Below are positions 39,835 through 58,191 of a stretch of DNA of 64,000 nt, piece after piece; positions within the stretch are counted from its first letter, which is position 1; the number at the start of each line of letters is the position of its first letter. The notes below the pieces were generated by a model. That model made no database searches. It was not told where the DNA came from and worked only from the letters and a program-made list of their open reading frames with translations. The stretch comes from an uncultured Chloroflexia bacterium (lineage in GTDB: Bacteria; Chloroflexota; Limnocylindria; Limnocylindrales; CSP1-4). The DNA lies in contig CAVVCZ010000001.1 of NCBI GenBank assembly GCA_963746845.1, positions 324,635-388,634 on the forward strand, read 5' to 3'. Both the position numbers and the translations under genes were made by a program.

Positions 39835-41415
39835 TTGGTTCGCCAGGCAGTCACGCGGCTGTGCGCAGTGAGCTTCGGCGGCCCCTTTGAGGGATTCGGC
39901 CGAGGGTCCATTGTCGGGCTGCTCGGGCTACTGGTCCTCGTCACGCTTGGGTGCGAGCCCGCAAGACTAGGCCAGGCCACGCTACCACCGGCCGTCGCGA
40001 CCGCATCCACGGGCCCATCGACGAGTTCGGGCCTTCAGGCCACCCCAGCAGTCGTCTCGCCCGCAGCCCCGCCCCCGAACCGCCTGGTCTTCCATGTCGG
40101 TGGCGGAGGACTCGACGTGGCTCCTCCGAACCTCGAGTCAGCCTCGCCGCGTGAGCTCGCGACGGGCATCCAAGCATCCGAGCCGACGATCGCGCTCCTC
40201 GATGGCGGGGCCATGGTTTACCAGGGATGGGATCGTCCAGCGAATGGCGCCGTCGGGACTTCGCGGGTGTACGTTGCCGAAGTGCCCGACGGCGGATGGC
40301 ACGAGATTTCTCCGACTCCTCCGGGGGTGACCCACGACCCGTACCTTACGACCGACCCACGTACCGGCCGCATCCTAAGCGCCGCGCTGCTAGTCCCGGG
40401 CGAGCTCGAGCCCGACAAGTTCTGCATCGTTGTCAGCTTCACGGACGATCGCGGCGCGAACTGGGACCAGAGCGATCCGATCTGCAGCGCCGACGCCGAC
40501 CGGCCGAGATTGATCGCCTCCGTACCCGTGACCAGCGAGACGGGCGACGCCAGTCTGATCACCCTCTGCTATGTGAATGGCCGCACCGACGGCCAAACGT
40601 GCCTGCGGTCCCTCGATGGTGGCGCCACGTTTCGGGCAGCAGGCCTGATCCCACCGGACGGGTGCGATCCGGGGCCTGCCGGTCCCCTCTTCGGCCACCT
40701 CGCAGCCGATGCGCGGGGGACCCTGTATCTCGGCCGGATCTCCTGTCGCCGGCCAGTGATCGCCATCAGCATCGACGAAGGAACGACCTGGACCGAACAC
40801 GTGATCGGGCCCGAGGGCTGGAACGGCTATCCGGAGGTCGCCGTTGCGGTCGACGACGACGGTGTCATCTATGGACTATGGGTCGCCGCTGACCGCCTTC
40901 CCTACCTGGTGGCGTCACAGGACGGTGGAACCACCTGGGCTGAGCCACTGCGGGTGTCCGCTCCCGGCATCGCCGAGGTCAACCTCGTTTCCATGGAGGG
41001 CGGCGCCGGTGGCCGGCTCGCGATCGGCGCGATCGTCAGCACCGATGCGCCTACCGGACCGAAATCGGCAGTGGCCGTTCAATGCAACGAGGGGCCGTGC
41101 ACTGACGCAGTCTTCTACGAAAACGTGACCTGGCACGCCAGCCTGACGGTGACGGTGGACGCCTCGGCGCCATCCCCACACTTCGCAACGGCGATTCTGA
41201 ACGATCCCGTCGCGCCGATCGTTCGCGGCAGCTGCGGCCCGGGGAGATGCAAGTCCAACGCGGATTTCACGGATCTGGTCATCGATGCGCAGGGCCAGCC
41301 CTGGATGGCGTTCGTCGCCTGTCCCGATGGAGTCTGTCCAACACGCCAAACGGGTGGCTATTGGGGTTCGTCGAATGGCATGCTCGGGACCATTGACGGG
41401 GTGCCACTGGGCTGA
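39835..41415 (+). CDS. secreted BNR/Asp-box (sialidase-like) beta-propeller protein
   Basis: Asp boxes FTDDRGANW, SLDGGATF, SIDEGTTW and SQDGGTTW, with a hydrophobic signal ending TLGC. Start uncertain. Confidence 0.75.
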   Translation: MVRQAVTRLCAVSFGGPFEGFGRGSIVGLLGLLVLVTLGCEPARLGQATLPPAVATASTGPSTSSGLQATPAVVSPAAPPPNRLVFHVGGGGLDVAPPNLESASPRELATGIQASEPTIALLDGGAMVYQGWDRPANGAVGTSRVYVAEVPDGGWHEISPTPPGVTHDPYLTTDPRTGRILSAALLVPGELEPDKFCIVVSFTDDRGANWDQSDPICSADADRPRLIASVPVTSETGDASLITLCYVNGRTDGQTCLRSLDGGATFRAAGLIPPDGCDPGPAGPLFGHLAADARGTLYLGRISCRRPVIAISIDEGTTWTEHVIGPEGWNGYPEVAVAVDDDGVIYGLWVAADRLPYLVASQDGGTTWAEPLRVSAPGIAEVNLVSMEGGAGGRLAIGAIVSTDAPTGPKSAVAVQCNEGPCTDAVFYENVTWHASLTVTVDASAPSPHFATAILNDPVAPIVRGSCGPGRCKSNADFTDLVIDAQGQPWMAFVACPDGVCPTRQTGGYWGSSNGMLGTIDGVPLG

Positions 41416-41422
41416 TCTCGCT

Positions 41423-41612
41423 CACGCGATCTACTGAGCGCATCGTTGTTGCGGGACCCACGTTCGTGAGCGCCCGACTCACCCCGGCGGCCTACCAGCA
41501 CGGTCTGGCCCTTGCGCCGCCTCAGGTTGTTATGGCGCGCCCGATCAGGATTCGCGCCTGCGCGCACCCGCGAGGAATGCAGGCTGATCCCGATCGATGG
41601 AGCGACGAGTGG
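41423..41612 (+). pseudogene. large serine recombinase 3' remnant with degenerate att site (GG at 41548-41549)
   Basis: HAIY/ERIVVAGPTFVSARLTPAAYQHGLALAPPQVVMARP...IPIDG..DEW, homologous to 50117..50374. Confidence 0.7.
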
Positions 41613-41756
41613 GATGCTGCGACATACGTGTGCAGCGCCCTACGAGTGGGCGGTGAAGAAGCCGCACGACCGGGCTCCAGGAGCGAGTGCCCGCGAGCTG
41701 CGCGTCGTGAGTTCCAACTGACGGCCCTCGATCTGGAGTAGAGAGTTTCGGCTCGG

Positions 41757-43763
41757 TCAGGTCAGGCCCCAGCCGATCAGGTGCCAGGCGGCGAGCTGCA
41801 CGGTCAGCCCGACGCTCGCAACGACGAGGACGGCATCTCGGAGCTGGATGGCGCTCGACCACCATCTCCTGACCCACCCCACGACGCCGAGGGTCAGCAG
41901 GCAGCCAGCCGCGACGGCGAGCGCCAGGGGCAGGTGCAGCGCCAGGCGCTGCACGAGGGGGAACTCGAGCCAGCCGAGGAACCCGGAGTCGACGAGCCCC
42001 GGGATGGTGGCGACGAGTGCGATCGTGGCGAGCCCGAACGCTGCACTGAGCGTCGCCGCCGCGAGGAACAGGCGGTAGGTCCCTGTGTTCTCCGGGCCGC
42101 GCGCCACGTCGGTGGCACTTCGGCGCCTGCGGATCATCGAGACGAGGCCCGCGATCAGCCACCAGGCCGACACGAGTGCCGCGACGACCAACAACGCCCA
42201 TTGCCACGGCGCCGGTCCGTTGGAGACCCGAACGAGCTCGAAGTTGCGCCAGGTCGCCACGGCACCTCGGAAGTCGAGGGCCTCGCCGTTATCGGCGAGG
42301 AAGACGCCGGTCTCGACCTCCGTCAGCCGATGGACACTGGCCGTGTCATTCCAATCGTGCCCTTCGAAGTAGGGCACGCCGGCGTCGACGAAGAACCGCT
42401 CCGGTGCGCCAGACGGATTCATGGCTCCCCAGACCGCCACCTTGAAGCTGCCGGCGTAGCGCGCCCAGCGGACCGCTTCGTCGCCCGATGGCGGCATGGC
42501 CAGGCCTTCGACGCGTTGCGCGAGGCCTGCCGGGGGCAGGTACCCGCCGTCAGGCTCCTCGGCCGGAGCCCGCGCGGGCAAGGCGAGCAGCCGGTCGTGG
42601 TACGTGGTGCCGGGCTCCTGCACCACGTCCTGGAGGATCGAGAGTGCGAGGTCGCCCTGGAGGTGGTGATCGGCCGAGTTGGTGAGCACCGCGATCCCGA
42701 GCTGCAGCTGGGGCGCCCACCACATGTCGGACAGGAAGCCGAAGCCACCGCCACCATGGTTGAACAAGTCGGTGTTGTTGCCGTTGAACCAGGTGTGGCG
42801 GACGACGCCCAGCGCGTAGCCCGCGGGCGCGCCGGCGTGCGGCGCCGGAACCGTCCGCATCTCGCTCATCAGCGCGCCGCCGAGCACGGCCTTGCCATCG
42901 AGCGTGCCGTCGTTCAGCTGGAACCGGAGGAACTGCGCCAGGTCCGTCGCGCTCGTATACAGCCCGCCTGCCGCCATCATCGGCTCGAACACGGGCACGC
43001 TCGGGATCGGACTCGAATGCCCCAGCGCGCGGTTCGCGGTCGCCCCGATCTCGTCGCGGTCGAAGGTGCTTTCGGTCATGCCCAGCGGTGCGAGCAACAG
43101 CTCGCGCATCACGGCCGCGTACGGCTTGCCGTACGTCCGCTCGAGGATGAACCCGGCGACGTCGATGCCCAAGTTCGAATAGGCGAAGCCCGTCCCGACG
43201 GGGAACCGCAGCCACGTGTCTGAGATGCTCCGGACGTGCTCGTCGAAGGTGCCCGGGTCGAGCTCGTCGTTGTTGCCGATCGGCGCCTCGTGGGTGAAGC
43301 CGGCGGTGTGGCTCAACAGCATGCGGAGCGTGATCTTCCGCTCGGGATGGTCCTCGAACGCGCTGTGCACGGTGAACTCCGGGAGGTAGGTGGTGATCGG
43401 CTCGTCGAGGCTGAGACGCCCGTCCTGGACGGCGCGCATGACGGCGGTCGCAGTGAACAGCTTCGACATCGACTGGACGCTGAAGAGCGTGTCGGCATCG
43501 ACCGAGCCCGACCCATTGCCATCGACGTGCCCAAAGCCCTGCGTCCAGAGCACCTGGTCGCCGTCGACGAGCGCGACGGCGAGACCGGGGACGTCCTGCT
43601 CGGCCATAAGCTCCGGGATGTGTGCCTGATACTTCGCGATCACGTTTGCCGCGTCAGTGGCGGCTCCCACGGACGGCACGGCGCCGAATGGAAGGACAGA
43701 AACGGTCGCGAGCCCGACGCACGCGGCAAGCGTCGCGATGAGCGGTCCCCGCCGCTTGCTCAT
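41757..43763 (-). CDS. membrane-anchored serine hydrolase, beta-lactamase class C/AmpC-like
   Basis: Signal peptide, SMSK (SxxK), LLSHTAG, YSN and HGG, with C-terminal TM helices. Confidence 0.88.
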   Translation of the reverse strand: MSKRRGPLIATLAACVGLATVSVLPFGAVPSVGAATDAANVIAKYQAHIPELMAEQDVPGLAVALVDGDQVLWTQGFGHVDGNGSGSVDADTLFSVQSMSKLFTATAVMRAVQDGRLSLDEPITTYLPEFTVHSAFEDHPERKITLRMLLSHTAGFTHEAPIGNNDELDPGTFDEHVRSISDTWLRFPVGTGFAYSNLGIDVAGFILERTYGKPYAAVMRELLLAPLGMTESTFDRDEIGATANRALGHSSPIPSVPVFEPMMAAGGLYTSATDLAQFLRFQLNDGTLDGKAVLGGALMSEMRTVPAPHAGAPAGYALGVVRHTWFNGNNTDLFNHGGGGFGFLSDMWWAPQLQLGIAVLTNSADHHLQGDLALSILQDVVQEPGTTYHDRLLALPARAPAEEPDGGYLPPAGLAQRVEGLAMPPSGDEAVRWARYAGSFKVAVWGAMNPSGAPERFFVDAGVPYFEGHDWNDTASVHRLTEVETGVFLADNGEALDFRGAVATWRNFELVRVSNGPAPWQWALLVVAALVSAWWLIAGLVSMIRRRRSATDVARGPENTGTYRLFLAAATLSAAFGLATIALVATIPGLVDSGFLGWLEFPLVQRLALHLPLALAVAAGCLLTLGVVGWVRRWWSSAIQLRDAVLVVASVGLTVQLAAWHLIGWGLT

Positions 43764-43782
43764 GGCCGGGTGGCCGACAACG

Positions 43783-44460
43783 TCACGGTGGACGCTCCGC
43801 CCCGACCTGGCGTGGACCAGCAGTCGGGCCCGCAGCGGCCCGCGCTGCGAGCTTCTGTGGCTGCTGGGCGGCCCAAAGGTTGAGCGCCATCAGCCCGACG
43901 TAGCCGAGGATCAAGCCGATCAGGACCCACTCCATCGGTGGCGTGTGCAGCACGAATCCGAACAGCACCGCCGCGGCCCCGGAGAGGAGGGCCCAGACAG
44001 CGATCGGCCGCCAGAAGGCGGGATGCCGATAGAGGAACAGGCCGGACAGCACCGCGGCTGTGGCCAGGATCTCGATGTTCCACATCGAGATCCAGCCGTG
44101 CATATCGGCGTTGAGGCTCTCGGGCAGGATGGCTGTCGCCACGGTTGTCGCGCCGCCGATGACGCCGAGGATCCGGACGGCAGTGAGCCGGTTGCGCATT
44201 CGTCGTGACGCGCCTTCGGCCCAATCGGCGAATCCCCAGAAGAAGCCGATGAGCGCCACGCCGGTCAGGCTCACGCCGACGTTGTAGACCAGCGCTCCGC
44301 CAGGGTTGAGCGTCGAGCTGCCAAGGTCACTCAGCCAATTGTCGGCGGGGCCGAACGGACCCGGATAGAGCATTTGGGCGGCGATCGTGAAGCCCAGGTA
44401 GCAGCCGATCGCAGCGATGCCGGCGACGGAGCTGAGCGGCCAACGATGTCTGCCATTCAT
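43783..44460 (-). CDS. DUF998-type membrane protein
   Basis: YPG..NWLSDLG..NPGGALVYN, with several TM segments. Confidence 0.7.
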   Translation of the reverse strand: MNGRHRWPLSSVAGIAAIGCYLGFTIAAQMLYPGPFGPADNWLSDLGSSTLNPGGALVYNVGVSLTGVALIGFFWGFADWAEGASRRMRNRLTAVRILGVIGGATTVATAILPESLNADMHGWISMWNIEILATAAVLSGLFLYRHPAFWRPIAVWALLSGAAAVLFGFVLHTPPMEWVLIGLILGYVGLMALNLWAAQQPQKLAARAAAGPTAGPRQVGAERPP

Positions 44461-44859
44461 CCACGTTTAGATAAGGGCGACGGCACCGTCGGCGGTAGAG
44501 CCGGAAGGCATGAACCAGGGGGCCCACGAGGAGCCTTGCGGCACTGGTATGAGGATCGACGAGAAGGCTGCGGTCCGGACTCGAACCTCCCGCAGCCAGG
44601 GTAGTAAGGACCCTATCGACCGATCGTCAAACGTCGACGGAGAGTCGCAACGAACCGGCCGACGGCTCGCTGCTTGGTGCGGCGAGGCTGGAGGATGACG
44701 CGGGCTGCTCTCCGACGTCCTCATGCAAAATTTCAGAAGTCGGCTACGTTGCGCTATTGCCTCCGCCTTCTCCGCAGTGGCACTGGACGGGTCACCGCCG
44801 ACGGGTCACCGCCGAGGTCCGCCGAGGCGAGAAGGTCGCACGTTCGACTAGGGATTCAA

Positions 44860-44955
44860 GCGCGCCCGACAGGTGTTGGACGCGCGATTTCAACCTACAC
44901 CATCCCGATCGAGGGGCGCGACGAGTGGCTGGCCGCTGCTAGGCGGCTGGCATGA
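44860..44955 (+). mobile_element. att junction (non-element left arm / P' right arm) with recombinase tail coding remnant
   Basis: gcgcgcccgaca GG tgttggacgcgc gatt tcaacct, encoding ARPTGVGRAISTYTIPIEGRDEWLAAARRLA*. Confidence 0.75.
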
Positions 44956-45200
44956 GGGACGGGTACCAGCGCGGGGTGCTTCCGCCGCAGGCGACGCGGC
45001 GCCAGATGGACGTGCTTGCCGCCTACGTAGCCGCCGGCGGGTCGGTCCACGACGCGGCCGAACTCGTGGGTATCAGGCCCAGCACCGTCAAGCGGCACCT
45101 CGCCGACCTACGAGCGCGGTCGGGACTGACGACCGAGCAGCTGATCTATTCGGGCCGCGCCCTTGGTTGGCTCGTCGTCCCGAGCCTGGAGCCAGCGTGA
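44952..45200 (+). CDS. small HTH DNA-binding protein coupled to the recombinase tail
   Basis: ATGA overlap; TRRQMDVL..SVHDAAELVGIRPSTVKRHLADLR. Confidence 0.7.
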   Translation: MRDGYQRGVLPPQATRRQMDVLAAYVAAGGSVHDAAELVGIRPSTVKRHLADLRARSGLTTEQLIYSGRALGWLVVPSLEPA

Positions 45201-45292
45201 TCTCTTGAATGCAGGCTGAGCCCCCGCGCGCGACCCCGAGTGCCCATCGCTCGCTCAAGCCGGACTATGCGCCAACCACTCTCGCTCCGCAG

Positions 45293-45994
45293 TCAGGCCG
45301 TGCCGATGGGATCGGCACGGTCGGGCGACGCCCGGAGGCTGTCCAGACCGGCGAGGATCAGATCGAGACCGAAGTCGAACTCGCTGGCGAAGTCGTAGCC
45401 GGCCTTGCCCACGTGCTCGGCAACGGACTCGGCGAGGTAGGGATAGTCGTCAGCGGGGAACTGGCTGAGAATCTCGATCGCCAACTTGTCGACCTGGTCC
45501 GTGCTTTCGAAGGGCAGGGTCTGCTCTTGCAGCGCGAAGCCGAAGATGAAGCTGTCGAGCAGGGTGAAGGCGTGAACGGCCATCGCGACGGAGAAGCCAG
45601 CCTGCCGCAACGCCCCTATCACCATGTCGTGGTATCGCATGTTGCCCGGGCCTGGATGGACGCGGGACTGGATCACCCCCAGCGCCCAGCGGTGACGCGC
45701 GAGCACTTCGCGGATCGAGTTGGCTTGCTGACGCATCGCCCCTTTCCAGTCTGACCCTTCGGCGGTGACGTCGATCTCCTCGTACATCACGTCGACCATC
45801 GCGTCGAGCAGATCGTCCTTGTTCGCGAAGTGGTTGTAGAGCGCCATGGGGTATACCCCCAGCTCCTGGGCGACGTTCCGCATGCTGAGCGACTCGATCC
45901 CGCCTTCATCAGCGAGCTTGATGGCCGTTCTGAGCACTCGCTGCCGGCTGAGTGGGACTCGTCGTCTGGTCCTCGATCGTTGCTTGACAACCAT
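45293..45994 (-). CDS. TetR family regulator (TetR_C type)
   Basis: LSMRNVAQELGV.PMALYNHFANKDDLL and FDFGLDLIL. Confidence 0.9.
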   Translation of the reverse strand: MVVKQRSRTRRRVPLSRQRVLRTAIKLADEGGIESLSMRNVAQELGVYPMALYNHFANKDDLLDAMVDVMYEEIDVTAEGSDWKGAMRQQANSIREVLARHRWALGVIQSRVHPGPGNMRYHDMVIGALRQAGFSVAMAVHAFTLLDSFIFGFALQEQTLPFESTDQVDKLAIEILSQFPADDYPYLAESVAEHVGKAGYDFASEFDFGLDLILAGLDSLRASPDRADPIGTA

Positions 45995-46025
45995 TTGGAT
46001 CCTCTCGGCACCTGGGTCTTGACGT

Positions 46026-46076
46026 ATGTACGCTGTACATCTAATGTACGCCGTATTGGCGATGTACGCCGTACAT
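46026..46076. promoter_or_regulatory. three ATGTAC-N3-GTACAT operator palindromes at 18-bp period
   Basis: 46026 atgtacgctgtacat, 46044 atgtacgccgtattg and 46062 atgtacgccgtacat, following TTGACG between divergent genes. Confidence 0.8.
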
Positions 46077-46091
46077 TAGCAGGAGACCACC

Positions 46092-47120
46092 ATGAAGGCA
46101 ATCGTTCAACCAACCTATGGCTCACCCGATGACCTGCAGCTGCGCGACATCGACCAGCCCACGATCGGCGACCGCGACGTGCTGGTGCGCGTGCATGCCG
46201 CGTCGGTCAACACCGCCGACCGGCTCATCCTGCGCGGCCGCCCCTATCTGATGCGCGCCGCGGGCTCCGGACACGGCTTTAGCCCGCGTCGACCCCAGTT
46301 CGCCGTCGCGGGCACGGACCTCGCCGGTCGTGTGGCGGCGGTAGGCAGTCTGGTGACCGCCTTCCGCCCCGGCGACGAGGTGTACGGGAGCGTCCCCGGC
46401 GCGATCGCGGAGTACGTCGCGGCGCCGGACACCGCCCTGGCGGCCAAGCCGTCGAGCCTCAGCTTCCAACAGGCCGCCGCGATGCCGCTGGCCGCGCTCA
46501 CCGCACTCCAGGGGCTTCGCGATGCCGGACAGGTCCAGCCCGGGCAGCGGGTTCTGATCAATGGGGCCTCGGGCGGCGTCGGCACCTATGCGGTGCAGAT
46601 CGCCAAGGTCCTGGGCGCCGAGGTGACCGCGGTGACCAGCGGCCCGAACGTCGAGATGGTTCGATCGCTCGGCGCCGACCACGTCATCGACTACACCAGC
46701 GAGGACTTCACGAAGTCAGCCAGTCGGTATGACGTCATCCTGGACCTTGTGGGCAACCACTCACTGTCGGCTCGACGACGCGCGCTGACCGCGACGGGCA
46801 CGCTGTTGCTGTCATACGTCGGTACCAACCGCTGGGTGGGGCCGTTCGGTCACATCCTGGCTGCCGTGGTGCTGACGCGGTTCACGAGCCACAGGATCGT
46901 CTCGTTCACGACCGCTCCGAGCAGTGCCGACCTGCTCGTCCTTGCGCAGCTGACAGACGAGGGAAAGATCGTGCCGGTCATCGACCGGACCTACCGCCTC
47001 GACCAAGCAGCCGAGGCGATCCGCTACCTGGAACTCGGACGTGCCCGGGGCAAGGTCATCATCAGCATCAGCGACCGCGGCGCGCTGGCCGCGCTGACGC
47101 CGGCGAGTGTGGCGTCGTGA
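46092..47120 (+). CDS. NAD(P)-dependent quinone oxidoreductase/MDR family protein
   Basis: MKAIV..YGSP, NGASGGVGTYAVQIAK and ARGKVII. Confidence 0.9.
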   Translation: MKAIVQPTYGSPDDLQLRDIDQPTIGDRDVLVRVHAASVNTADRLILRGRPYLMRAAGSGHGFSPRRPQFAVAGTDLAGRVAAVGSLVTAFRPGDEVYGSVPGAIAEYVAAPDTALAAKPSSLSFQQAAAMPLAALTALQGLRDAGQVQPGQRVLINGASGGVGTYAVQIAKVLGAEVTAVTSGPNVEMVRSLGADHVIDYTSEDFTKSASRYDVILDLVGNHSLSARRRALTATGTLLLSYVGTNRWVGPFGHILAAVVLTRFTSHRIVSFTTAPSSADLLVLAQLTDEGKIVPVIDRTYRLDQAAEAIRYLELGRARGKVIISISDRGALAALTPASVAS

Positions 47121-47773
47121 CGGCGCCAGCGATGCCAGTGGGGCCGTACGCGGCTCGTCTGACCATTGACTACCCCGAACGCCTTGATCGGGTCACGACC
47201 TTCTTTCGCCTGATCTGGGTCATACCGATCGCCATCGTGCTCGGAGTGATCACGGGGAGCGGGACCCAGATGATGGTCACCGCAGCCGGCGGGCACATCG
47301 TCGGAGCCGGCGGTGGACTGCTCGCTGGCTTGGCTTTCGCCACGGCGCTGATGATCGTCATCCGCATGCGCTACCCGCGCTGGTGGTTCGACTTCGCACG
47401 GGAGCTGACCCGCTTCGGCGCCCGCGTCGGTGCCTACGTGGCCCTGATCACGGACCGATATCCGTCCACTGTCGAGGAGCAATCGGTGCACCTCGAGATC
47501 GAGTATCCAGAGGTCGATCGCGACCTGAACCGCTGGCTTCCACTGGTCAAGTGGTTCCTGGCGATCCCCCATTACGTCGCGCTGGTCGTCCTGATCATCG
47601 GAGCGGCCCTCGCCATCGTGATCGCCTGGTTCGCGATCCTCATGACCGGGCGTTATCCCCAGCCGCTCTTCGACTACGTGGTCGGCGTCGGGCGGTGGAG
47701 CCTGCGCGTGAACGCCTACGCGTTCCTGCTCGTGACCGACCGCTATCCCCCCTTCAGCCTGAAAGCAGGGTAG
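47117..47773 (+). CDS. DUF4389 membrane protein
   Basis: Two repeats ending RYP..FDF / TDRYPPFSL. Confidence 0.88.
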   Translation: MTAPAMPVGPYAARLTIDYPERLDRVTTFFRLIWVIPIAIVLGVITGSGTQMMVTAAGGHIVGAGGGLLAGLAFATALMIVIRMRYPRWWFDFARELTRFGARVGAYVALITDRYPSTVEEQSVHLEIEYPEVDRDLNRWLPLVKWFLAIPHYVALVVLIIGAALAIVIAWFAILMTGRYPQPLFDYVVGVGRWSLRVNAYAFLLVTDRYPPFSLKAG

Positions 47774-47775
47774 TC

Positions 47776-48933
47776 ATGCGAATCCTCCGAGAGCTCTCGC
47801 GGCGCAAGCTGCGCACGAGCCTGACCATCACCGGCATCACCATCGGCATCTGGGCACTCGTGGTGTTCAGTTCGCTGGCCAACCAGATCAACGGCCTCGT
47901 CGGCATGGGCAGCGAATACTTCGCCGACAAGATCGTCGTCACCGACGGCATGGCCTTCGGCTCGTCGCCGATGCGCCTCGACGACGTTGAGATCATCGCC
48001 GGCCTCGACGGCGTCGGTGCCGTCCAGCCCAAGGTCGAGATCCCGTGGGACCCCGATCCCGCTATCGGGTTCGGCGCGCCGGACTTCCTGGTCGGGACCA
48101 TCCCGGGCGCCGCCGCCGGGTTCGAGACGTTCACACTCGAGCTGGCCACGGGACGCCAGCTCATCGCCGAGGACACCGGCAACGTCGTGGTCCTGGGGTC
48201 GACCATCGCCCGCAAGTACGGCGTCGTCGCCGGCGGGACGGTCGACATCCGAGGCGAGTCCTTCGATGTCCTTGGGACCCTGCAACCCACCCTCAGCTCG
48301 CCCGACACGAACGGCTTCATCCCGCTCTCGACGGCCCAGGCGCTGTACCTGGGCGACCTGCCCCCACTCGTCGCCGAGTCGCTCGAGGCGGACGAGCTGG
48401 CCAACCAGATCGTCGTCTTCCCCGAAGTCGGTGCCGACCCGACGACGGTGGCCGCGGCGATCGAGGCCGCGGTCGAGAACAGCGCGACCATGACCGGCGC
48501 CGAGTTCTCCGAGACGGTCGGCGCCACGACCGTGATCTTCAACGCGATCATCATCGGGGTGGCCGCCATCAGCCTCATCGTGGGCGGCCTGTCGGTGATC
48601 AACACGATGGCCATGAGCGTGGCCGAGCGGACCCGCGAGATCGGCATCCGGCGGGCCATCGGCGGCTCCCGGCGACGCATCGTCCGCGAGCTCGTCGCCG
48701 AGGCCGGGGTCATCGGGCTGCTGGGCGGCCTGATCGGGCTCGGCCTGGGCGCTGCGGTCGTCGTCCTGGTCAACGAGGCCGGCCGATCGAGCGGCACCGT
48801 CCTCTTCGAGCTCACCGCACAGACCGCGGCGTTCGCGGTCGGCTTCAGCACGATCCTCGGGATGGTGGCCGGGATCATCCCGGCCTGGACTGCCGCACGG
48901 CTCGACCCGGTGTCGGCCCTGCGTTACGAATGA
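47776..48933 (+). CDS. MacB/FtsX-type ABC transporter permease
   Basis: RRKLRTSLT, SVAERTREIGIRRAIG and AARLDPVSALRYE. Confidence 0.9.
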   Translation: MRILRELSRRKLRTSLTITGITIGIWALVVFSSLANQINGLVGMGSEYFADKIVVTDGMAFGSSPMRLDDVEIIAGLDGVGAVQPKVEIPWDPDPAIGFGAPDFLVGTIPGAAAGFETFTLELATGRQLIAEDTGNVVVLGSTIARKYGVVAGGTVDIRGESFDVLGTLQPTLSSPDTNGFIPLSTAQALYLGDLPPLVAESLEADELANQIVVFPEVGADPTTVAAAIEAAVENSATMTGAEFSETVGATTVIFNAIIIGVAAISLIVGGLSVINTMAMSVAERTREIGIRRAIGGSRRRIVRELVAEAGVIGLLGGLIGLGLGAAVVVLVNEAGRSSGTVLFELTAQTAAFAVGFSTILGMVAGIIPAWTAARLDPVSALRYE

Positions 48934-48962
48934 CCAACGACCGAACGACGAAGGAGCGAACG

Positions 48963-49685
48963 ATGAACCTGATCGAAGCGACCGACCTGCGCAAGACCTA
49001 CCGGCTGTCGCGCCGGACCAGCATCGATGCCCTGCAGGGTGTTGACGTCAGCATCGCCGCCGGCGAGATGGTGGCGATCATGGGGCCGTCAGGCTCCGGC
49101 AAGAGCACGCTCATGCACCTGCTCGGGCTGCTCCACGCGCCGGATACCGACGACGGCCCGGCCCCGACCCTGCGCATCGATGGGGTCGATGCGACGACCC
49201 TCTCGGACGGCGAGCGAACGTCCATCCGGGCTCGATCGATGGGCTTCGTGTTCCAGTCCTTCAACCTCGTCCCGACGCTCACCGCCGAGGAGAACGTGGC
49301 CCTCGCCGCCGAGTATGCCGGGACGTCCGGTTCGGCAGCCCGTGTGGCTGCGCGCGCCTCGCTGGCGTCGGTCGGCCTTGCCGAGCGAGCGGGGCACCGG
49401 CCGATGGAGTTGTCAGGGGGCGAGCAGCAGCGCGTGGCCATCGCCCGTGCCCTCGTGAACGACCCGAAGCTGATCCTCGGTGATGAGCCGACGGGCAACC
49501 TGGATTCATCCCGGGCCGCGGAAGTCCTGGGCCTGCTCCGTCGCTTCAACCGTGAGCGCGGGCAGACCGTGCTCATCGTCACGCACGACCAGGAGGTTGG
49601 CGCCGCCTGCGACCGGATCATCCGGATGCGTGACGGGCGGATCATCGCCGACGAGCGCGTGGCGGACGTGCAGGTTGCCGCATGA
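48963..49685 (+). CDS. ABC transporter ATP-binding protein (LolD/MacB-like)
   Basis: GPSGSGKST, LSGGEQQR and DEPTGNLD. Confidence 0.92.
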   Translation: MNLIEATDLRKTYRLSRRTSIDALQGVDVSIAAGEMVAIMGPSGSGKSTLMHLLGLLHAPDTDDGPAPTLRIDGVDATTLSDGERTSIRARSMGFVFQSFNLVPTLTAEENVALAAEYAGTSGSAARVAARASLASVGLAERAGHRPMELSGGEQQRVAIARALVNDPKLILGDEPTGNLDSSRAAEVLGLLRRFNRERGQTVLIVTHDQEVGAACDRIIRMRDGRIIADERVADVQVAA

Positions 49686-49704
49686 CGGCCGGAACAATGC
49701 GCGA

Positions 49705-50110
49705 TCACGCACAAGCACTCGGCGAACCGATCATCCGTGCCGGGTTGCTGGCAGGCGCCACAAGTCGCTTTGTCTTGGTCCCGCTAGCTACGAGTTCTCC
49801 ACCGCCCGCGCGCTTGACCAGCGCCTGGTACTGCGACCGCAGGACATCGACCTCGGCCTGGAGTTCGGCGCCCTCGGGACTGGCTGGGTCGATGTCCGCG
49901 AGACGACGCTCGACGGCTCGCCACTCGGCGAGCACGTCGCCGATACGGTACATCCTGGCCGAGAGCTTCGTGGTCGGCCGCTCGACCGGATAGAAGAGCG
50001 CCCGGAACCTGCCGTCGGCCTCTTCGAGGATCGCGGAACGGACCCGCACGAGCTCACCGTCGAGTCGCCGGAATGCCCCCTCGGCAAGGACCCTCTCCGG
50101 CCGCGACGCG
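49705..50110 (-). pseudogene. 3' fragment of a hypothetical (PAS-like + helical) protein
   Basis: Protein-like frame FRRLDGELVRV...VLAEWRAVERRL. Its 5' end abuts the recombinase remnant. Confidence 0.35.
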
Positions 50111-50116
50111 AAGTCA

Positions 50117-50374
50117 GCGACGTGGAGGGCGGCCGAGGTGCCCGCGGAGAAGGCCGATCTGCTCCACGCCATCTACGATCGGATCACCGTCGCAGGAAGG
50201 AGCATCGTGTCCGTCAGGCTCACTCCGTCGGCATACGCCCACGGATTCGCGCTCGCACTGCCCGAAAAGGTTGCAGTGGCGCGCCCGACAGGTGTCGGGC
50301 GCGCGTTAGCAACCTACGAGATCCCGATCGAGGGTCGCGATGAGTGGCTGGTCGCGGCGAGGCGGCAGGCGTGA
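50117..50374 (+). pseudogene. large serine recombinase 3' remnant spanning an intact attP-like site
   Basis: ATWRAAEVPAEKADLLHAIYDRITVAGRSIVSVRLTPSAYAHGFALALPEKVAVARPTGVGRALATYEIPIEGRDEWLVAARRQA*. Confidence 0.72.
50268..50315. mobile_element. 48-bp symmetric attP-like site
   Basis: aggttgc agtg gcgcgcccgaca GG tgtcgggcgcgc gtta gcaacct: perfect 12-bp inner and 7-bp outer inverted arms. Confidence 0.85.
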
Positions 50375-50415
50375 CGGTCGTGGACAGTACGCACCTGCCT
50401 CGACGTCCTCGTCGA

Positions 50416-50874
50416 TCAACGGCGGAGGCGGGGCCAGGCTGCGGCGATCAGGCCGACCCGCAGGAGCGCCAGGGCGGGCGGGATGGGCAGGGCGTAGCCG
50501 TACCAGAAGACTGCCTCGATCGGGATCATGGCGACGGCAAGCACGGCTCCAGAGCGGCGTCCCCGCCACATCAACCACCCGCCCCACGCGACCGCTGCAG
50601 TGACACCCGCGTATCCGACGAGCGTCGCGGCGAACGCCTCGGGACTCAACAGGCCCCACCACGGGCCGCCATACATCGGGAACAGGTCGCCGAGCCACGG
50701 CAGTTCCCGTTCCCGGAGTGCATAGGCCGCGATCGGCAACGCGGGCAGCCCGTATCCGGCCGCGTACACCCAGCACACCACCGCTGCACCACGCGCGACA
50801 CCGGGGACCGCCGCCGTCGCGGTCACGCGGTCCGCAGCCCCAGGGCGATCCCGATCCACGTGAACTCCGGTCAT
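50416..50874 (-). CDS. small membrane protein
   Basis: Four hydrophobic segments; overlaps the SRPBCC stop. Confidence 0.65.
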   Translation of the reverse strand: MTGVHVDRDRPGAADRVTATAAVPGVARGAAVVCWVYAAGYGLPALPIAAYALRERELPWLGDLFPMYGGPWWGLLSPEAFAATLVGYAGVTAAVAWGGWLMWRGRRSGAVLAVAMIPIEAVFWYGYALPIPPALALLRVGLIAAAWPRLRR

Positions 50875-51326
50875 GTCCTGGCCTCCGCCTCCGATTCCAG
50901 CAGGGCCCTTAGCACCTGATCATTCCGTTCGACGTCGCGGCGCAGCACACGTCCCATGGACGGCTCGATGAGCCGACCCAGTCCGGGGAAGCGGAGTTGG
51001 ACGCGACTGGTCAACGCGCTGGTGGAGGCGCTGGTCGGCTCGACGAGGTAGGACGCCTCTCCGGTCACTCCGCCCCCGGGCGGGATGTCGAAGGCGACGA
51101 AGCGACCGGGCTCGAACGCGACGAACTTGTTCCGCGACTCGATCCGCCGACCCGCGAACCGGCGAACGAAGCTGTGCTCTGACCCTACCCCGATAGGACC
51201 CGGTGTAAGGCGATGGACTTCGTCGAGCCCGGACTGCCAGCGCGGCGCGTTCGTCTGGTCGCTGACGAACGCAAACACGTCGGCGGCCGGCCGCCCGATC
51301 TCGATCCGTGTCTCCACGCTGATCAT
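50871..51326 (-). CDS. SRPBCC/polyketide cyclase family protein
   Basis: IEIGRPAADVFAFVSDQTNAPRWQ...LRALLE. Confidence 0.85.
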   Translation of the reverse strand: MISVETRIEIGRPAADVFAFVSDQTNAPRWQSGLDEVHRLTPGPIGVGSEHSFVRRFAGRRIESRNKFVAFEPGRFVAFDIPPGGGVTGEASYLVEPTSASTSALTSRVQLRFPGLGRLIEPSMGRVLRRDVERNDQVLRALLESEAEART

Positions 51327-51358
51327 CCGCAGGTCCCTTCCCCAGTGAACTGGCTGTA

Positions 51359-51380
51359 TCACTAGTGTGCACTCTAGTGA
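51359..51380. promoter_or_regulatory. near-perfect 22-bp palindrome, likely TetR operator
   Basis: tcactagtgtgcactctagtga, between the divergent SRPBCC and TetR genes. Confidence 0.7.
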
Positions 51381-51426
51381 GACGTCGGATAGTATCGCCT
51401 TCGCGACGGATGTCAAGAGGTTCCGC

Positions 51427-52089
51427 ATGGCCAGCCTGACCCGACGGGAGCGGTCCCGCGCCACCCACTGGAAGATCGTCGAGGCATCGCACCGCCTGTT
51501 CTCGACCCAGGGCTATGCCGCCACGACGATGGCGCAGGTCGCCGAGGCTGCTGGCGTCGCCGTCCAGACGGTCTACTTCGTGTTCCACACAAAGCCCGCC
51601 CTGCTCGCGCGGGCCATCGACTTCGCCGTAATGGGCCGGGATGACCCGCGTTCTCCTGAGGAGCAGCCGTGGTACCTGGCGATGACCGATGCCTCGGGGA
51701 TCGCCGAGGCGGTTCGCCACCTGGTGACCGGTGTCGGCTCGATCATGCCAAGGGTGATCCCGCTCAATCTCGCGGCGCGGGCGAGTGACGATCCCGACCT
51801 GGCCAGGGTCATGGCGGAATCCGAGGCCTGGCGGGCCGATGGCTACCGGGTCATTCTCGAGATCCTTCGGAAGAAGGCACCGCTGCGCGATGGGCTCGAT
51901 CCGGAGAGAGCAGCGCACCTGCTGCTCTTCTACGTTGGCGAGGACGCCTACCACTTCCTCGTCGGGACGTACGGCTGGCCGCACGACGACTGGGTGGATT
52001 GGTGCGTCACCACGCTCCTGGATCAGGTATTCGGTCTGGCCACGCCACCCGAAGGCATCCTCTCCGGCACGCAGCCGACGAACCACTGA
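51427..52089 (+). CDS. TetR family regulator
   Basis: GYAATTMAQVAEAAGVAVQTVYFVFHTKPALL. Confidence 0.9.
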   Translation: MASLTRRERSRATHWKIVEASHRLFSTQGYAATTMAQVAEAAGVAVQTVYFVFHTKPALLARAIDFAVMGRDDPRSPEEQPWYLAMTDASGIAEAVRHLVTGVGSIMPRVIPLNLAARASDDPDLARVMAESEAWRADGYRVILEILRKKAPLRDGLDPERAAHLLLFYVGEDAYHFLVGTYGWPHDDWVDWCVTTLLDQVFGLATPPEGILSGTQPTNH

Positions 52090-52196
52090 CGGTCGCAGGC
52101 CCTCGAGATCGTGGGTGTCCGGCTGACCCAAGCGGCCTACGCGCACGGGTTGGCGCTGGCGCTGCCCGAAAAGGTTGCAATGGCGCGCCCGACAGG
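52086..52196 (+). pseudogene. recombinase 3' remnant and P arm abutting the tRNA
   Basis: LTVAG/LEIVGVRLTQAAYAHGLALALPEKVAMARPTG; att arm aggttgc aatg gcgcgcccgaca GG. Confidence 0.75.
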
Positions 52197-52256
52197 ATTC
52201 GAACCTGCGACCTTCGGCTCCGGAGGCCGACGCTCTATCCACTGAGCTACAGGCGC
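52181..52256 (-). tRNA. tRNA-Arg(CCG)
   Basis: GCGCCTGTAGCTCAGTGGATAGAGCGTCGGCCTCCGGAGCCGAAGGTCGCAGGTTCGAATCCTGTCGGGCGCGCCA: full cloverleaf with encoded CCA. Confidence 0.97.
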
Positions 52257-52320
52257 GCGGACCGCGATGATAGCCGCTGAGCGTGGATCGACCATCAGCT
52301 TCTGGTCTGGACTGCCAGCC

Positions 52321-52641
52321 CTACGGTCCGAAGCGCAACGAGGCGACGACCGCGTCGAGCTCGGCGAGCAGGGCTGCCGTCGCGTCCTCGTCCGAGATCC
52401 TCGCCGCCGCAGCGAGCGTTCGCCCGTCGACGTCGACCACGTAGACCGTCATGGTCCATCCCGGATCGATGTTGGACACGCCGTGGCCTCCGGGATCTTC
52501 TGGGAACAGCCACATCGTGCCGTCGTCGCACGTTGTCGCGTCCAGGTCGGCTGGGAACGAGAGCGCGAACCGGCTTGCCTGGTTGCCGGAGATGCTGACC
52601 TCGGTCGGTCCGAGCGCCTCGGACCACGAGGTCGCGCGCAC
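52321..52641 (-). pseudogene. 3' fragment of a hypothetical secreted-type protein
   Basis: Protein-like C-terminus TVYVVDVDGRTL...AELDAVVASLRF; no good start. Confidence 0.4.
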
Positions 52642-52814
52642 TGCTCACCGCCCGATTCCCTCGCGGCGACCTGCCGCCTTGCCAATGATGTGCCCGACCC
52701 GCCCCCGGAAGGTTCCACATTCGGCCGCTGATCGCCGACAGGCGATGGGCATATCGTTCGAGGCGGCGCATCTCCCTCTTCCGGAGACGCGTCGTGATCT
52801 GGAGCCTCCCGACC

Positions 52815-54084
52815 ATGAAGCTGGACGTCCAACCGCTCGTCGCCCTGTGCGACATGCCCGTCCACATCGGCGTCAGCGACGTGCCAGAGGGCACCAAGGT
52901 CAAGGTCAGCGCGCGCATGGCGCTGCCGTGGGCACCCGCCGCCGGATATGAGTCCGCGGCCTGGTTCACGAGCGGACCGTCCGGGATCGTCGACCTCGCC
53001 AGACAGAGGCCGGACTCCGGCAGCTACGATTTCGTGGACCCCATGGGCCTCATCGTGTCGCTGCGGCGAACGGCCGGCTCCAACCTCGCCGACATCGCCC
53101 AGAACGTCTCCCCAGATGAGCCGATCCGGATCGAGATCGTGGCCGAGTGCGGCTCCGATCGAACGTCGGCCACACTCGAGCGCAGGTTCCTGGCTCCCAA
53201 CATCAAGCGCGAGCGCCTCCCGGCGCCCATGGTGGGCGAGCTCTTCTCCAGCCCCGAGGCCCGGTCAGACCGGGTGGTCCTTGTGCCGACCGGATCGGGC
53301 GGCGACCTCGGATCGGTCCTCCCGATCGCGGCTCTCCTTGCCTCGCACGGGATCAATGCCCTTGGCCTGGCCTATTTCGAGGAGGAGGGGTTGCCGGGCG
53401 CTCTGGCTCGGATCCCACTTGAGTATTTCGAGCAGGTCTTCGCGTGGCTGCGAGCCCATCCGACGGAGGGCCCGAGGGAGGTCGACATCCTCGGCATCTC
53501 CAAGGGTGGCGAGCTGGCCCTGCTCCTGGCTTCGCGTTACCCCTTGGTCACGAAGGTCGCGGCGTTTGCGCCGCATGCGTACTGCTTCCAGGGCCTCAAC
53601 TTCCGGACCGTGTCGTCATGGACGTATCACGGAGCCGATCTGCCGTTCATCCGGCTGAGCATCCGCGTACTCGTCGAGAGCATGTTGAGGGCGTTCATGC
53701 GTAATCGACCGTTCGGCTACGTGACCACCTATCGAAAGGGACTCAGAGCGGCGAAGAACACGGAGGCCGCGCGGATCAAGGTCGAGGACTCCAACGCCAA
53801 GATTTCTGCTGTTCGCCGGCAGACGCGACGGCATCTGGAACTCGTACGACGGCTGCGAGGTCGTGATGCGGGAGCTCGACGGGCGGGCGTATCGCCGCCA
53901 ACACCAGTTCGTCGGCTACGAGGACGCCGGGCACTCCTGGTACCCGCCCTACGTGATCCCGTGCACGGACACGACGGTCAAGATTGCGCCGCGGCTCAGG
54001 CTCGCGACTGGAGGGACACTCGAGGGGAATGCCCGCGCCCAGGCCGACTCCTGGCAGCGCGCGCTCGCGTTCTTCGCCTCCTGA
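52815..54084 (+). pseudogene. acyl-CoA thioesterase/BAAT family hydrolase with a +1 frameshift near 53803
   Basis: GISKGG in the first frame. Removing one T from gatttctg restores ILLFAGRRDGIW...YEDAGH, ending at 54084. Confidence 0.8.
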
Positions 54085-54129
54085 CCCAGGCTGCGAACGG
54101 GCACCGGATCAGCGGGACCCTGGCGGCTT

Positions 54130-54633: not shown

Positions 54634-54669
54634 GGCGTCAAGCCTATTCGCGAACCAGGTCGGAACTTG

Positions 54670-55056: not shown

Positions 55057-55326
55057 GAACTCGGACAGACCGACGGCACCACCCGCCACGGGCGGATCGA
55101 TCGTCGGCACGCTCGTTCTCGCATCACGGGCGGATCCTCCAACAGGAGCCCCGGCAGGGCAATGGCGTCGGCACACCTACGCCCGTGCTGGCGGCTCGCG
55201 ACCGGTCGCGGGAGGGCGCACCACTCGGCGATCCGGTGGTGCACCGCATCGCGCAGGTCGCGCAGGTCGCTATGCTGCGTTCACCCGACGCCTCGCGCTC
55301 GGGATGAGTGGAGGAGAACCGGCCAC

Positions 55327-55914: not shown

Positions 55915-56004
55915 AGCCACCCGCTCATCGACCGGCCAGTCAGGCCGGACTCGATCGCTCCGGAGACCGATCGGCCCACGGCCGGTCGGTCTCATGCATC
56001 TGGG

Positions 56005-58164: not shown

Positions 58165-58191
58165 CTCGGGCTGGTCCCGTCGCTCCGACCC

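Follow-up and report, generated by a model that had tools for sequence, protein, structure and literature searches.

Cassette-like arrays at a single chromosomal site are known from several systems. Cis-mobilizable elements (CIMEs) keep both att sites but have lost their integration and transfer genes, derive by deletion from an autonomous element of the same integration specificity, and are mobilised in cis by excision of a composite with a functional neighbour. Their site-specific accretion at tRNA genes produces tandem arrays (Guedon et al. 2017, PMC5704250). In staphylococcal SCC composite islands, cargo cassettes bounded by large serine recombinase (LSR) att sites stack at the 3' end of one housekeeping gene, and some of them, the ccr-less or pseudo-SCC elements, lack the recombinase (bioRxiv 10.1101/336396; PMC3900703). 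Serine recombinases that target the 3' part of a tRNA gene are called rare, with examples in actinomycete integrative and conjugative elements (AICEs) in tRNA-Leu of Mycobacterium and in phage phiRSM1 in tRNA-Ser (Ghinet et al. 2011, PMC3218068). In SSV-type archaeal elements, attP lies inside the integrase ORF (PMC7253208). Integrons carry ordered gene cassettes, promoterless and with attC sites, next to a resident tyrosine integrase, IntI, with attI and a promoter.

Here we examined a tRNA-Arg locus in a soil Chloroflexota genome, where two small gene packets without an integrase, left over from temperate phages and still bounded by phage attachment sites, sit in tandem. Nearly identical copies occur in other genera, so these packets appear to move as units. 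The window analysed is a stretch of 64,000 nt (GCA_963746845.1, contig CAVVCZ010000001.1, positions 324,635 to 388,634) of a 3.56-Mb assembly that is 92% complete. A sequence-only reading had proposed four att sites in one orientation, separating cargo modules without an integrase. We interpreted these modules in comparison with 400 other genomes of the family; G and L numbers below are our labels for genomes (or, where stated, a phage contig) and for loci of relatives.

Attachment sites and cargo at tRNA-Arg(CCG)

In order to verify the proposed sites, we first searched the window for the core. The 14-mer GCGCGCCCGACAGG occurs exactly three times, all on the + strand, at 44860, 50279 and 52183. 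A fourth copy, at 41535-41549, has one extra base (gcgcgcccgaTcaGG). The GG-to-GG distances are 3324, 5419 and 1904 bp, and the core is antisense to the 3' end of tRNA-Arg(CCG). The observation made from sequence alone was thus confirmed, and the cargo had also been annotated correctly. The features are as follows.

31701-32599 (-): SRPBCC plus ArsR-like gene pair, beyond the array.
41423-41741 (+): site A, a degenerate attP-like relic, with a pre-core integrase remnant (41436-41543), a core with a 1-bp insertion, GG at 41548-41549, and a decayed post-core arm to about 41623.
41757-44460 (-): beta-lactamase-family (AmpC-like) protein (41757-43763; Pfam Beta-lactamase, 3.8e-69) and DUF998 membrane protein (43783-44460; 2e-10), accessory DNA outside the attB-left junction.
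44831-44873 (+): site B, an attB-left/attP-right junction, made of the native tRNA 3' end without an encoded CCA plus a 31-nt trailer, then the core and GG at 44872-44873.
44874-50291 (+): unit 2 (5419 bp GG to GG), with the post-core integrase tail (44874-44955), a LuxR-type HTH gene (44952-45200), TetR (45293-45994, minus strand), a zinc-type oxidoreductase (46092-47120), DUF4389 (about 47138-47773), a MacB/FtsX permease (about 47776-48933), an ABC ATPase (48930-49685), a stretch of unknown origin (49707-50029) and an integrase remnant (50030-50291).
50268-50315 (+): site C, a hybrid junction of the pre-core half of unit 2 and the post-core half of unit 3, which looks like an intact attP, with 23-nt inverted arms (83% complementary) around GG at 50291-50292.
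50293-52194 (+): unit 3 (1904 bp GG to GG), with the post-core tail (50293-50374), a membrane ORF (about 50416-50781, minus strand), an SRPBCC protein (50871-51464, minus strand; Pfam Polyketide_cyc2, 3.1e-17), a palindrome (51356-51383) overlapping the TetR start, TetR (51367-52089; TetR_N, 3.8e-13) and a 30-aa integrase remnant (52105-52194).
52181-52256 (-): tRNA-Arg(CCG), predicted by ARAGORN; it contains site D, the attP-left/attB-right junction, with GG at 52195-52196. The last 14 nt of the tRNA and its CCA are supplied by the cassette.

The short core alone is not beyond chance. With up to 2 mismatches there are 10 matches against 5.5 expected, and 6 of 100 shuffles reach 10. In contrast, the extended flanks are well beyond chance. 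We built DNA profiles only from relatives' sites, leaving the window out, and searched with nhmmer. The pre-core profile hits 50181-50292 (E 1.5e-29), 52088-52196 (5.5e-29) and 41442-41544 (1.4e-16), and the post-core profile hits 44860-44965 (2.7e-30), 50279-50381 (1.3e-28) and 41535-41623 (9.5e-5). Neither profile gives any other full-length hit. Units 2 and 3 therefore have both half-sites, as expected of CIMEs.

We further found that the coding sequence around the cores is the C-terminus of a large serine recombinase whose attP lies inside its own 3' end, in agreement with the earlier proposal. The remnants, located by tblastn with full-length integrases, are 37 aa (41436-41543, 54-81% identity), up to 89 aa (50030-50296) and, before the core, 30 aa (52105-52194). 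At site C the reading frame runs through ...ARPTG and on into VGRALATYEIPIEGRDEWLVAARRQA to a stop codon, whereas integrated full-length integrases read on into the tRNA antisense strand as ...ARPTG followed by FEPATFGSGGRRSIH. The absence of an integrase was also confirmed: the only 4 peptide matches in the assembly are these four sites, and there are 0 Resolvase (PF00239) matches, while a control search found the family in 12 of 14 reference genomes.

The interval 41548-44872, which had been counted as a unit, is not a demonstrated cassette. Its right end is an attB-left-type flank: 43 bp at site B are 97.7% identical to the unoccupied tRNA-Arg site of a genus relative (G097; L028 12066-12108). 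Its genes have only 71-77% DNA matches in 401 genomes, including a 73% paralog elsewhere in the same genome. Homologs of the SRPBCC plus ArsR-like pair, at 75-91% DNA identity, lie 0.2-5 kb beyond the last att site in G380, G011, G321, G009 and G037, and are the conserved neighbour just beyond the array in other genera. The variable interval in this window may hence run from about 32.6 kb to 52.2 kb.

The parental integrase and its phage

To identify the parents of the remnants, we examined full-length relatives. PF00239 was found above the cutoff in 3 of 3 sequences scanned (4.8e-10, 1.2e-9 and 2.7e-11), PDB matches were obtained to the solved catalytic domains of a conjugative-transposon recombinase (3g13) and TP901-1 integrase (3bvp), and S29 in the RESTxGQ motif is invariant in 9 of 9 sequences. 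The Recombinase domain (PF07508) scored below the cutoff (E 0.003-0.2) but at the expected place, residues 218-276; no Pfam zinc-ribbon hit was obtained, and C299, C301, H320 and C324 are invariant. The sites have the inverted arms around a non-palindromic dinucleotide that are typical of this class, and the identity between phage and tRNA sites stops at GG on one side, although cleavage at GG is inferred.

The parents are temperate tailed phages of about 42 kb of Ca. Limnocylindrales-like Chloroflexota. The IMG/VR phage contig G401 (42.2 kb) has an integrase 92% identical to the reference one, an unrecombined attP at 40325 and an HTH gene right after it, as well as TerS, TerL, portal, major head, minor tail and primase-helicase genes. 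In addition, a 43.3-kb prophage lies between two cores in G402. The integrase 3' end and the HTH gene flank att in the window just as in G401. The unit-2 HTH is 45% identical to the phage gene that follows attP (E 8e-10), and the site C remnant is 95% identical to a full-length integrase. No structural phage genes remain in the units of the window. These results support derivation by deletion from an autonomous element of the same specificity.

Distribution of units 2 and 3 in related genomes

We then asked whether the units occur elsewhere. Unit 2 (44873-50291) is found at 97-99% DNA identity (over 44860-49706) in 9 of 400 other family genomes from 5 genera (G011, G308, G200, G213, G372 with two copies, G250, G268, G021 and G071). 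Unit 3 is found at 89-98% in 9 of 400 from 3 genera (G304, G361, G321, G228, G380, G191, G239, G133 and G009). In contrast, core flanking genes are only 73-91% identical. Identity starts exactly at the 16-nt core, and neighbours and array position differ between genomes. Across 45 pairs of unit-2 copies, the 40 nt outside the distal core average 27% identity, while the 40 nt inside average 86%, with a median of 97.5%. The cargo/integrase-remnant junction, ...atgcgcgat joined to ctgatgcac..., is the same in 6 copies from 5 genomes in 3 genera, and unit 3 keeps its TetR-stop/remnant junction and a length of 1897-1904 bp in 5 genomes. Shared deletion junctions indicate that the cassettes spread after losing the integrase. 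The position of unit 3 also varies: it is alone in G228, G380 and G239, outermost of three in G304, distal of two in G133, and proximal in this window. In total, 30 att-bounded intervals in 21 loci measure 685-5807 bp, and attP-like hybrid junctions are common in relatives' arrays. Of 15 carrier genomes tested, 14 show only 3' remnants of the integrase, and G250 has a 38%-identical homolog with an internal TAG; since all genomes are metagenome-assembled and 51-97% complete, an integrase can be missed.

These data bear on the possibility, already raised as the alternative in the sequence-only reading, that the locus is a graveyard of decayed prophages. In a static graveyard, the units decayed in place and never move as units, and shared copies reflect vertical descent or transfer of large chromosome segments. 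The phage parentage agrees with it. Moreover, the start points of integrase remnants vary widely (positions 267-514 of 543 in about 25 truncated copies), one relative has an internal integrase fragment fused directly to the tRNA (L027), and the right end of unit 2 shows a nested deletion series at 49706, 49727, 49759 and 49781, with 49851 seen in a soil contig. However, cassettes that are 95-99% identical lie in genera whose neighbouring genes are 73-91% identical, identity ends exactly at the core with unrelated sequence outside, deletion junctions are the same in different genera, and array positions differ. A static graveyard is thus contradicted for units 2 and 3, and we consider it very unlikely.

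Another possibility is that cassettes spread without any integrase, by uptake of DNA from relatives and homologous recombination between the conserved stretches of about 85-110 nt that flank every core, and the tRNA gene itself. All units share flanks that are 80-95% identical, and carrier genomes lack an integrase. The first roughly 30 nt of the post-core arm differ between unit-3 copies that are otherwise 95-98% identical, and the window's unit 2 has a different pre-core end from the common form. A crossover at GG does not explain either, which points to some homologous recombination in the att-flanking stretches. Nevertheless, in unit 2 the identity break lies at the core itself and not at variable points inside the flanking homology; 8 of 10 distal arms match the window's arm from the first base after GG, with at most two substitutions. 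Outside-left sequences include native tRNA trailers that share no homology with the donor context. We regard this route as an unlikely full explanation.

An artefact of assembly or binning, in which one abundant mobile sequence was wrongly joined to several tRNA-Arg loci, is less likely still. All genomes are metagenome-assembled, and contigs near-identical to unit 2 occur in many soil runs. However, the copies lie inside contigs of 0.25-3.7 Mb with host genes on both sides, the junction sequences differ between genomes in the expected att-specific way, and G372 holds two copies 5.6 kb apart with a distinct spacer.

Origin and proposed movement of the units, and comparison with described systems

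Taken together, these findings suggest, with reasonable confidence, that the interval is the tRNA-proximal end of a phage attachment hotspot at tRNA-Arg(CCG) in a Ca. Limnocylindrales-like (Chloroflexota) genome. In this view, the phages carry a large serine integrase whose attP lies in the last roughly 100 bp of the int gene, with a pre-core arm that copies the tRNA 3' end and a crossover at the GG at the T-loop/T-stem border. Integration would leave attB-left/attP-right at the far end and attP-left/tRNA at the near end. Internal deletions would then strip a prophage down to its att-proximal accessory genes plus a 30-90-aa integrase remnant, leaving an integrase-less unit that keeps both attP half-sites, and units 2 and 3 are two such cassettes. 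A later phage integrase would recombine the attP of an incoming phage or cassette circle with the hybrid site next to the tRNA. Units would therefore stack with the newest nearest the tRNA, and attP-like hybrid junctions such as site C would form between them. The cassettes would move between cells and genera either by excision by a phage integrase supplied in trans, or in cis as a composite with an adjacent prophage. As this genome has no integrase, its array would currently be frozen.

Our data show the recombinase family, the phage parent, the att anatomy, and the unit-wise distribution with sharp ends and shared deletion junctions, whereas the use of hybrid sites as targets, the order of insertion and the route of transfer, in trans or in cis, are inferred. 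No circle, excision product or empty-site read was seen in the public runs, which were examined as contigs, and the one joint leading back (52182 to 44860, in a run labelled X1) fits a tandem array as well as a circle. The cargo of units 2 and 3 was not found on any IMG/VR viral contig, so no composite of phage and cassette has been seen. In well-studied large serine integrases, such as those of phiC31, Bxb1 and A118, sites that mix an attP half with an attB half are not described as integration targets, and stacking here would therefore need a looser rule. Some internal junctions in relatives have attB-left-like left halves (L051 7466, L054 11664 and L052 18547), which the simple stacking model does not predict. 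The interpretation made from sequence alone was thus partly supported: discrete, non-autonomous elements gained unit by unit were supported for units 2 and 3, and the prophage alternative holds for their origin, so that these are prophage remnants that appear to have remained mobile, but mobilisation in trans remains an inference and the likeness to integrons did not hold.

A bolder possibility, which we put forward only tentatively, is that temperate phages of soil Chloroflexota run a cassette system resembling an integron but built on a serine integrase. Because attP sits inside int and its pre-core arm copies the tRNA end, every integration would recreate a usable target. Prophages could then be whittled down to att-flanked cargo modules of 0.7-6 kb, which later phages would capture, carry between genera and drop. 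This would require an integrase that accepts hybrid sites made of an attP half and an attB half. Its last 26 residues change between the free and integrated states, and that change could help set the direction of recombination.

Compared with integrons, the locus shares an ordered array of small cargo units, each bounded by recombination sites, at one chromosomal platform, but it differs in every defining feature that we checked. No recombinase gene lies in or beside the array, there is no attI site or common promoter, the sites are assigned to the LSR type and not to folded attC sites on the basis of their inverted arms, and the cassettes carry their own TetR regulators and genes on both strands. 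As in SSV-type elements, the recombination site lies within the integrase's own reading frame and integration changes the gene; those are tyrosine recombinases whose gene is split in two, whereas here only the last 26 codons are exchanged for tRNA-antisense codons. The serine-recombinase AICEs and phiRSM1 likewise target the 3' part of a tRNA gene, and Prim-Pol replication genes are present, but the host phylum, the tRNA and the element type (conjugative elements there, a phage here) differ, and we found no cassette arrays described for them (Ghinet et al. 2011, PMC3218068). The closest analogues are ccr-less SCC elements and CIMEs formed by accretion. Unlike in SCC islands, the target is a tRNA gene and not rlmH, attP lies inside the recombinase gene, and the parents are phages. 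The recombinase is only distantly related: the CcrB and CcrA models score far below their cutoffs (NCBIfam CcrB, E 7e-7, 28 bits against a cutoff of 900), and tblastn identity to staphylococcal recombinases is about 22.5-22.7%. The described CIMEs are ICE or IME derivatives, mostly with tyrosine integrases, in Firmicutes (PMC5704250). Here, the parent is a tailed phage with a large serine integrase, the host belongs to an uncultured Chloroflexota lineage, the units are as small as 0.7-5.8 kb, and the same integrase-less units are seen across genera.

Repeated att-like sites at the tRNA-Arg gene

In order to establish whether the repeated core at the tRNA-Arg gene is real, we first searched the window for GCGCGCCCGACAGG and found it exactly three times, all on the + strand, at 44860, 50279 and 52183. 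A fourth copy with one extra base lies at 41535-41549, and the copy at 52183 is the antisense of the 3' end of tRNA-Arg(CCG). The short core alone is not significant, since with up to 2 mismatches there were 10 matches against 5.5 expected. We then built DNA profiles from the sites of relatives only. The profile of the roughly 110 nt before the central GG matched at 50181-50292, 52088-52196 and 41442-41544 (E 1.5e-29, 5.5e-29 and 1.4e-16), and the profile of the roughly 95 nt after GG matched at 44860-44965, 50279-50381 and 41535-41623 (2.7e-30, 1.3e-28 and 9.5e-5). No other full-length hit occurred in the 64 kb, and no further att relic was found between 28 and 41 kb. The repeated feature described in the sequence-only reading is therefore real, and its annotation of the cargo (an AmpC-like hydrolase with DUF998; TetR, oxidoreductase, DUF4389 and ABC transporter; membrane protein, SRPBCC and TetR) was correct. 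The parts of the array are as follows.

41535-41549 (+), site A, the core copy with one extra base
Core at 44860 (+), site B, an attB-left/attP-right junction
50268-50315 (+), site C, a 23-nt inverted repeat around GG, joining the pre-core half of unit 2 to the post-core half of unit 3
Core at 52183 (+), site D, joining the pre-core half of unit 3 to the tRNA body
52181-52256 (-), tRNA-Arg(CCG)

The left half of site B is not an integrase remnant. It is a tRNA 3' end without CCA plus a 31-nt trailer, 97.7% identical over 43 bp to the unoccupied tRNA-Arg site of the genus relative G097, and site B is therefore an attB-left/attP-right junction. The integrase remnants of the array are 37, up to 89, and 30 aa long. 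The native trailer after tRNA-Arg in this genome (window 44831-44859) and in G097 (locus L028, 12066-12094) contains an inverted copy of the tRNA's own variable-loop/T-arm sequence, about 16 of 17 nt by eye, which could pair with the tRNA precursor. In several other genera the sequence just outside the core on the attB-left side holds a GAAC-N4-GTTC or near-palindrome that resembles an SOS box (relatives' loci L050 at about 6690 and 12335, L025 at about 9375, L058 at about 4340 and 9405, and L060 at about 9355).

Site A was first considered as a decayed tRNA fragment, because its first 16 nt after GG resemble the tRNA T-arm. This was rejected, since relatives have a second type of post-core arm of similar form (loci L015, L020 and L026) and the post-core profile matches site A. 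As it matches both profiles, site A is a decayed attP-like site. However, it lies beyond the attB-left junction and its neighbouring genes have no close copies elsewhere, so the interval between sites A and B is a relic of unresolved history and not a demonstrated cassette. Homologs of window 31701-32599 sit just beyond the arrays in five other genomes, and a hydrolase like the one at 32873-34747 is cassette cargo in the relative G136. The whole stretch from 32.6 to 52.2 kb may therefore be old hotspot material. On the other side of the tRNA, genus relatives have the homologs of window 58.2-61.0 kb within 0.1-2.5 kb of the tRNA-Arg 5' side. The roughly 5.9 kb at 52260-58190, which includes a BAAT/acyl-CoA thioesterase-like gene at 52794-54224, therefore looks like a second variable insertion. 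DNA searches with the window's flanks in 5 genus relatives found little beyond the tRNA, and tblastx was too noisy at this G+C content. ARAGORN also called a 97-nt tRNA-Glu(CTC) at 28176-28272, but this overlaps a high-GC3 ORF of 383 aa on the minus strand (28154-29305) and is probably a false call.

The recombinase and its parent phages

To investigate what the repeats encode, we translated the frame through site C, which reads ...LTPSAYAHGFALALPEKVAVARPTG/VGRALATYEIPIEGRDEWLVAARRQA and then a stop. In the window's own assembly this peptide matched only the four sites, and no Resolvase-domain gene was found anywhere in the 3.56 Mb, which is 92% complete. Of 151 genomes of the same family, 98 had matches, 55 of them two or more by our count, and about 16 genomes had open frames of 466-976 aa ending in the peptide. 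Those full-length proteins are serine recombinases of about 500 aa. Their Resolvase domain scored above the Pfam cutoff, whereas the Recombinase domain was sub-threshold but in the right place. They matched the solved catalytic domains of TP901-1 integrase and of a conjugative-transposon recombinase, and the serine of the RESTxGQ motif and a Cys/His cluster (C299, C301, H320, C324) were invariant in 9 of 9 aligned sequences. In integrated copies the gene reads ...ARPTG and then runs into the tRNA antisense strand (FEPATFGSGGRRSIH). So attP lies inside the 3' end of int, its pre-core arm copies the tRNA 3' end, and the exchange point is inferred to be GG. The unpublished genome G082 contributes one row (locus L017) to the lists of remnant end-points and sites, and counts in the tally of 151 genomes.

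We further found that the parents are phages. The 42.2-kb IMG/VR contig G401 carries an integrase 92% identical to the reference full-length one, and the site C remnant of the window is 95% identical to that same reference integrase. In G401 attP is unrecombined and is followed directly by a LuxR-type HTH gene. Unit 2 keeps an HTH gene next to its post-core arm, 45% identical to the phage gene in the same position. The contig also encodes a small and a large terminase subunit, portal, major head, minor tail and primase-helicase proteins. The portal belongs to family phrog_104, and a search for the portal family phrog_12 found none. The small gene upstream of int appears at both contig ends, which indicates a circularly permuted genome. 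A 62-aa protein encoded just upstream of int is a candidate directionality factor. A second viral record has two cores 43.3 kb apart, one at a tRNA-Arg, and is an integrated prophage. More distant integrases (47-50% identity) sit in a phage genome with terminal repeats and in a phage-like contig of a family member. The related loci are recorded mostly as Chloroflexota / Ca. Limnocylindrales MAGs, and an actinobacterial host, first assumed from the G+C content, was rejected for this reason. In contrast, the GenBank phage and PLSDB plasmid collections gave only matches at about 22.5-27.3% identity to the integrase, so no named phage or plasmid in them carries it. Among the integrase-bearing elements, four also encode a tyrosine recombinase (Phage_integrase 1.2e-17) a few kb from the serine integrase (L036 6673-7644 and homologs in L037, L041 and L046). 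An intact integrated element next to tRNA-Arg in the relative G131 (L034 4955-10870) carries a Type III restriction-modification pair and a RAMA/HSDR_N protein as cargo.

Near-identical units in other genera

In order to investigate whether the units occur elsewhere, we searched 401 family genomes with the DNA of 41400-52180. The unpublished genomes G353, G139 and G201 count only in this tally, and no cassette-sharing claim rests on them or on G082.

Table. Matches to the window among the other family genomes (of 400).
Unit 2, window 44860 to 49706-49781: 97-99% identity; 9 other genomes (G011, G308, G200, G213, G372 with two copies, G250, G268, G021, G071); 5 genera
Unit 3, window 50277-52180: 89-98% identity; 9 other genomes (G304, G361, G321, G228, G380, G191, G239, G133, G009); 3 genera
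Beta-lactamase-family gene of the A-B interval, window 41757-43763: 71-77% identity; several other genomes, plus a 73% paralog of this AmpC-like gene in the same genome (G000:C4:296398-297816); genera not counted

Neighbouring chromosomal genes in these genomes are only 73-91% identical to the window. The ends of the shared stretches are sharp. Across 45 pairs of unit-2 copies, the 40 nt outside the distal core average 27% identity, while the 40 nt inside average 86% with a median of 97.5%, and the outside sequences include native tRNA trailers, remnants of other units and unrelated DNA. The junction between cargo and integrase remnant is the same in 6 unit-2 copies from 5 genomes of 3 genera, and unit 3 keeps its junction and a GG-to-GG length of 1897-1904 bp in 5 genomes. 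So the units spread after they had lost the integrase. Of 15 carrier genomes searched, 14 have only 3' remnants of the integrase, and G250 has a 38%-identical homolog with an internal stop.

The position of the units also varies between genomes. Unit 3 is alone in G228, G380 and G239, the outermost of three units in G304, the distal of two in G133, and next to the tRNA in this window, whereas G071 has unit 2 directly at its tRNA with no unit 3. The G071 copy of unit 2 (L024 10528) lacks 157 bp inside the MacB/FtsX permease gene (window 48406-48563) and has an extra SRPBCC gene between the ABC ATPase and the integrase remnant. In 21 loci there are 30 att-bounded intervals of 685-5807 bp. One array (L054, G372:C4, 6017-16632) holds two 99%-identical copies of unit 2 separated by a 685-bp mini-unit bounded by att sites, and a 687-bp unit also occurs in G200.

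Signs of decay were also present. Remnant start points range from position 267 to 514 of 543, and one relative has an internal integrase fragment fused to the tRNA (L027). The right end of unit 2 forms a nested deletion series at 49706, 49727, 49759 and 49781, with 49851 seen in a soil contig, and the window holds the longest version together with a different pre-core end from the common form. Moreover, the inner roughly 30 nt of the post-core arm differ among near-identical unit-3 copies, and some internal junctions in relatives (L051 7466, L054 11664, L052 18547) have left halves that look like an attB-left trailer (cgaatgcaagtgttcg) and not like an integrase remnant, which simple stacking at the tRNA does not predict. 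A crossover at GG does not explain these last two points or the odd pre-core end of the window. They suggest additional homologous exchange within the conserved att-flanking stretches.

We next looked for traces of movement in public data. Of 24 listed soil runs, 23 (from 13 studies) hold part of 44000-53000, and in the four examined, all as contigs, sequences 99% identical to unit 2 were present. The joints found were 49701 to 50155 (the common unit-2 junction, with a shorter side of only 25 nt), 49851 to 52162 (another deletion variant) and 52182 back to 44860. None of these distinguishes a circle from a tandem array. A search of IMG/VR with the cargo proteins of units 2 and 3 found no relatives, and neither a circle nor a phage-cassette composite was observed in these data.

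Mechanism and comparison with known systems

Taken together, the analysis establishes the recombinase family, the phage parent, the location of attP inside int, the att anatomy of the array, and a unit-wise distribution with core-exact ends and shared deletion junctions. Cleavage at GG, on the other hand, is inferred, as is the use of the tRNA-proximal hybrid site as a target, by which the newest unit would lie nearest the tRNA, and the supply of integrase by an infecting phage, either in trans or in cis as a phage-cassette composite. The proposal in the sequence-only reading of integrase-less elements stacked at one tRNA like integron cassettes was partly supported.

If this view is correct, it would show that a phage serine integrase can maintain a shared pool of tiny, integrase-less cargo cassettes that move between genera in an abundant but uncultured soil lineage, the cargo here being TetR-controlled efflux, oxidoreductase and ligand-binding modules. 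This would extend the accretion and cis-mobilisation idea, and the SCC idea, to phages, to tRNA targets and to Chloroflexota. It also offers a natural serine integrase that seems to tolerate repeated insertion at one site, a property of interest for serial genome integration tools, and a concrete and testable case of attP embedded in the integrase reading frame. Our literature searches, as judged from listings, returned no paper on mobile elements of Limnocylindria and none on serine-integrase cassette arrays at tRNA genes. Table S1 of PMC3218068 may list more tRNA-targeting serine recombinases.

In summary, the array is a real feature. It is not an integron, and by its target and recombinase it is not an SCC element, although it resembles SCC composite islands with ccr-less elements. 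Serine-recombinase integration into tRNA genes has been called rare (PMC3218068). The process matches the decay-and-accretion scheme described for CIMEs (PMC5704250).
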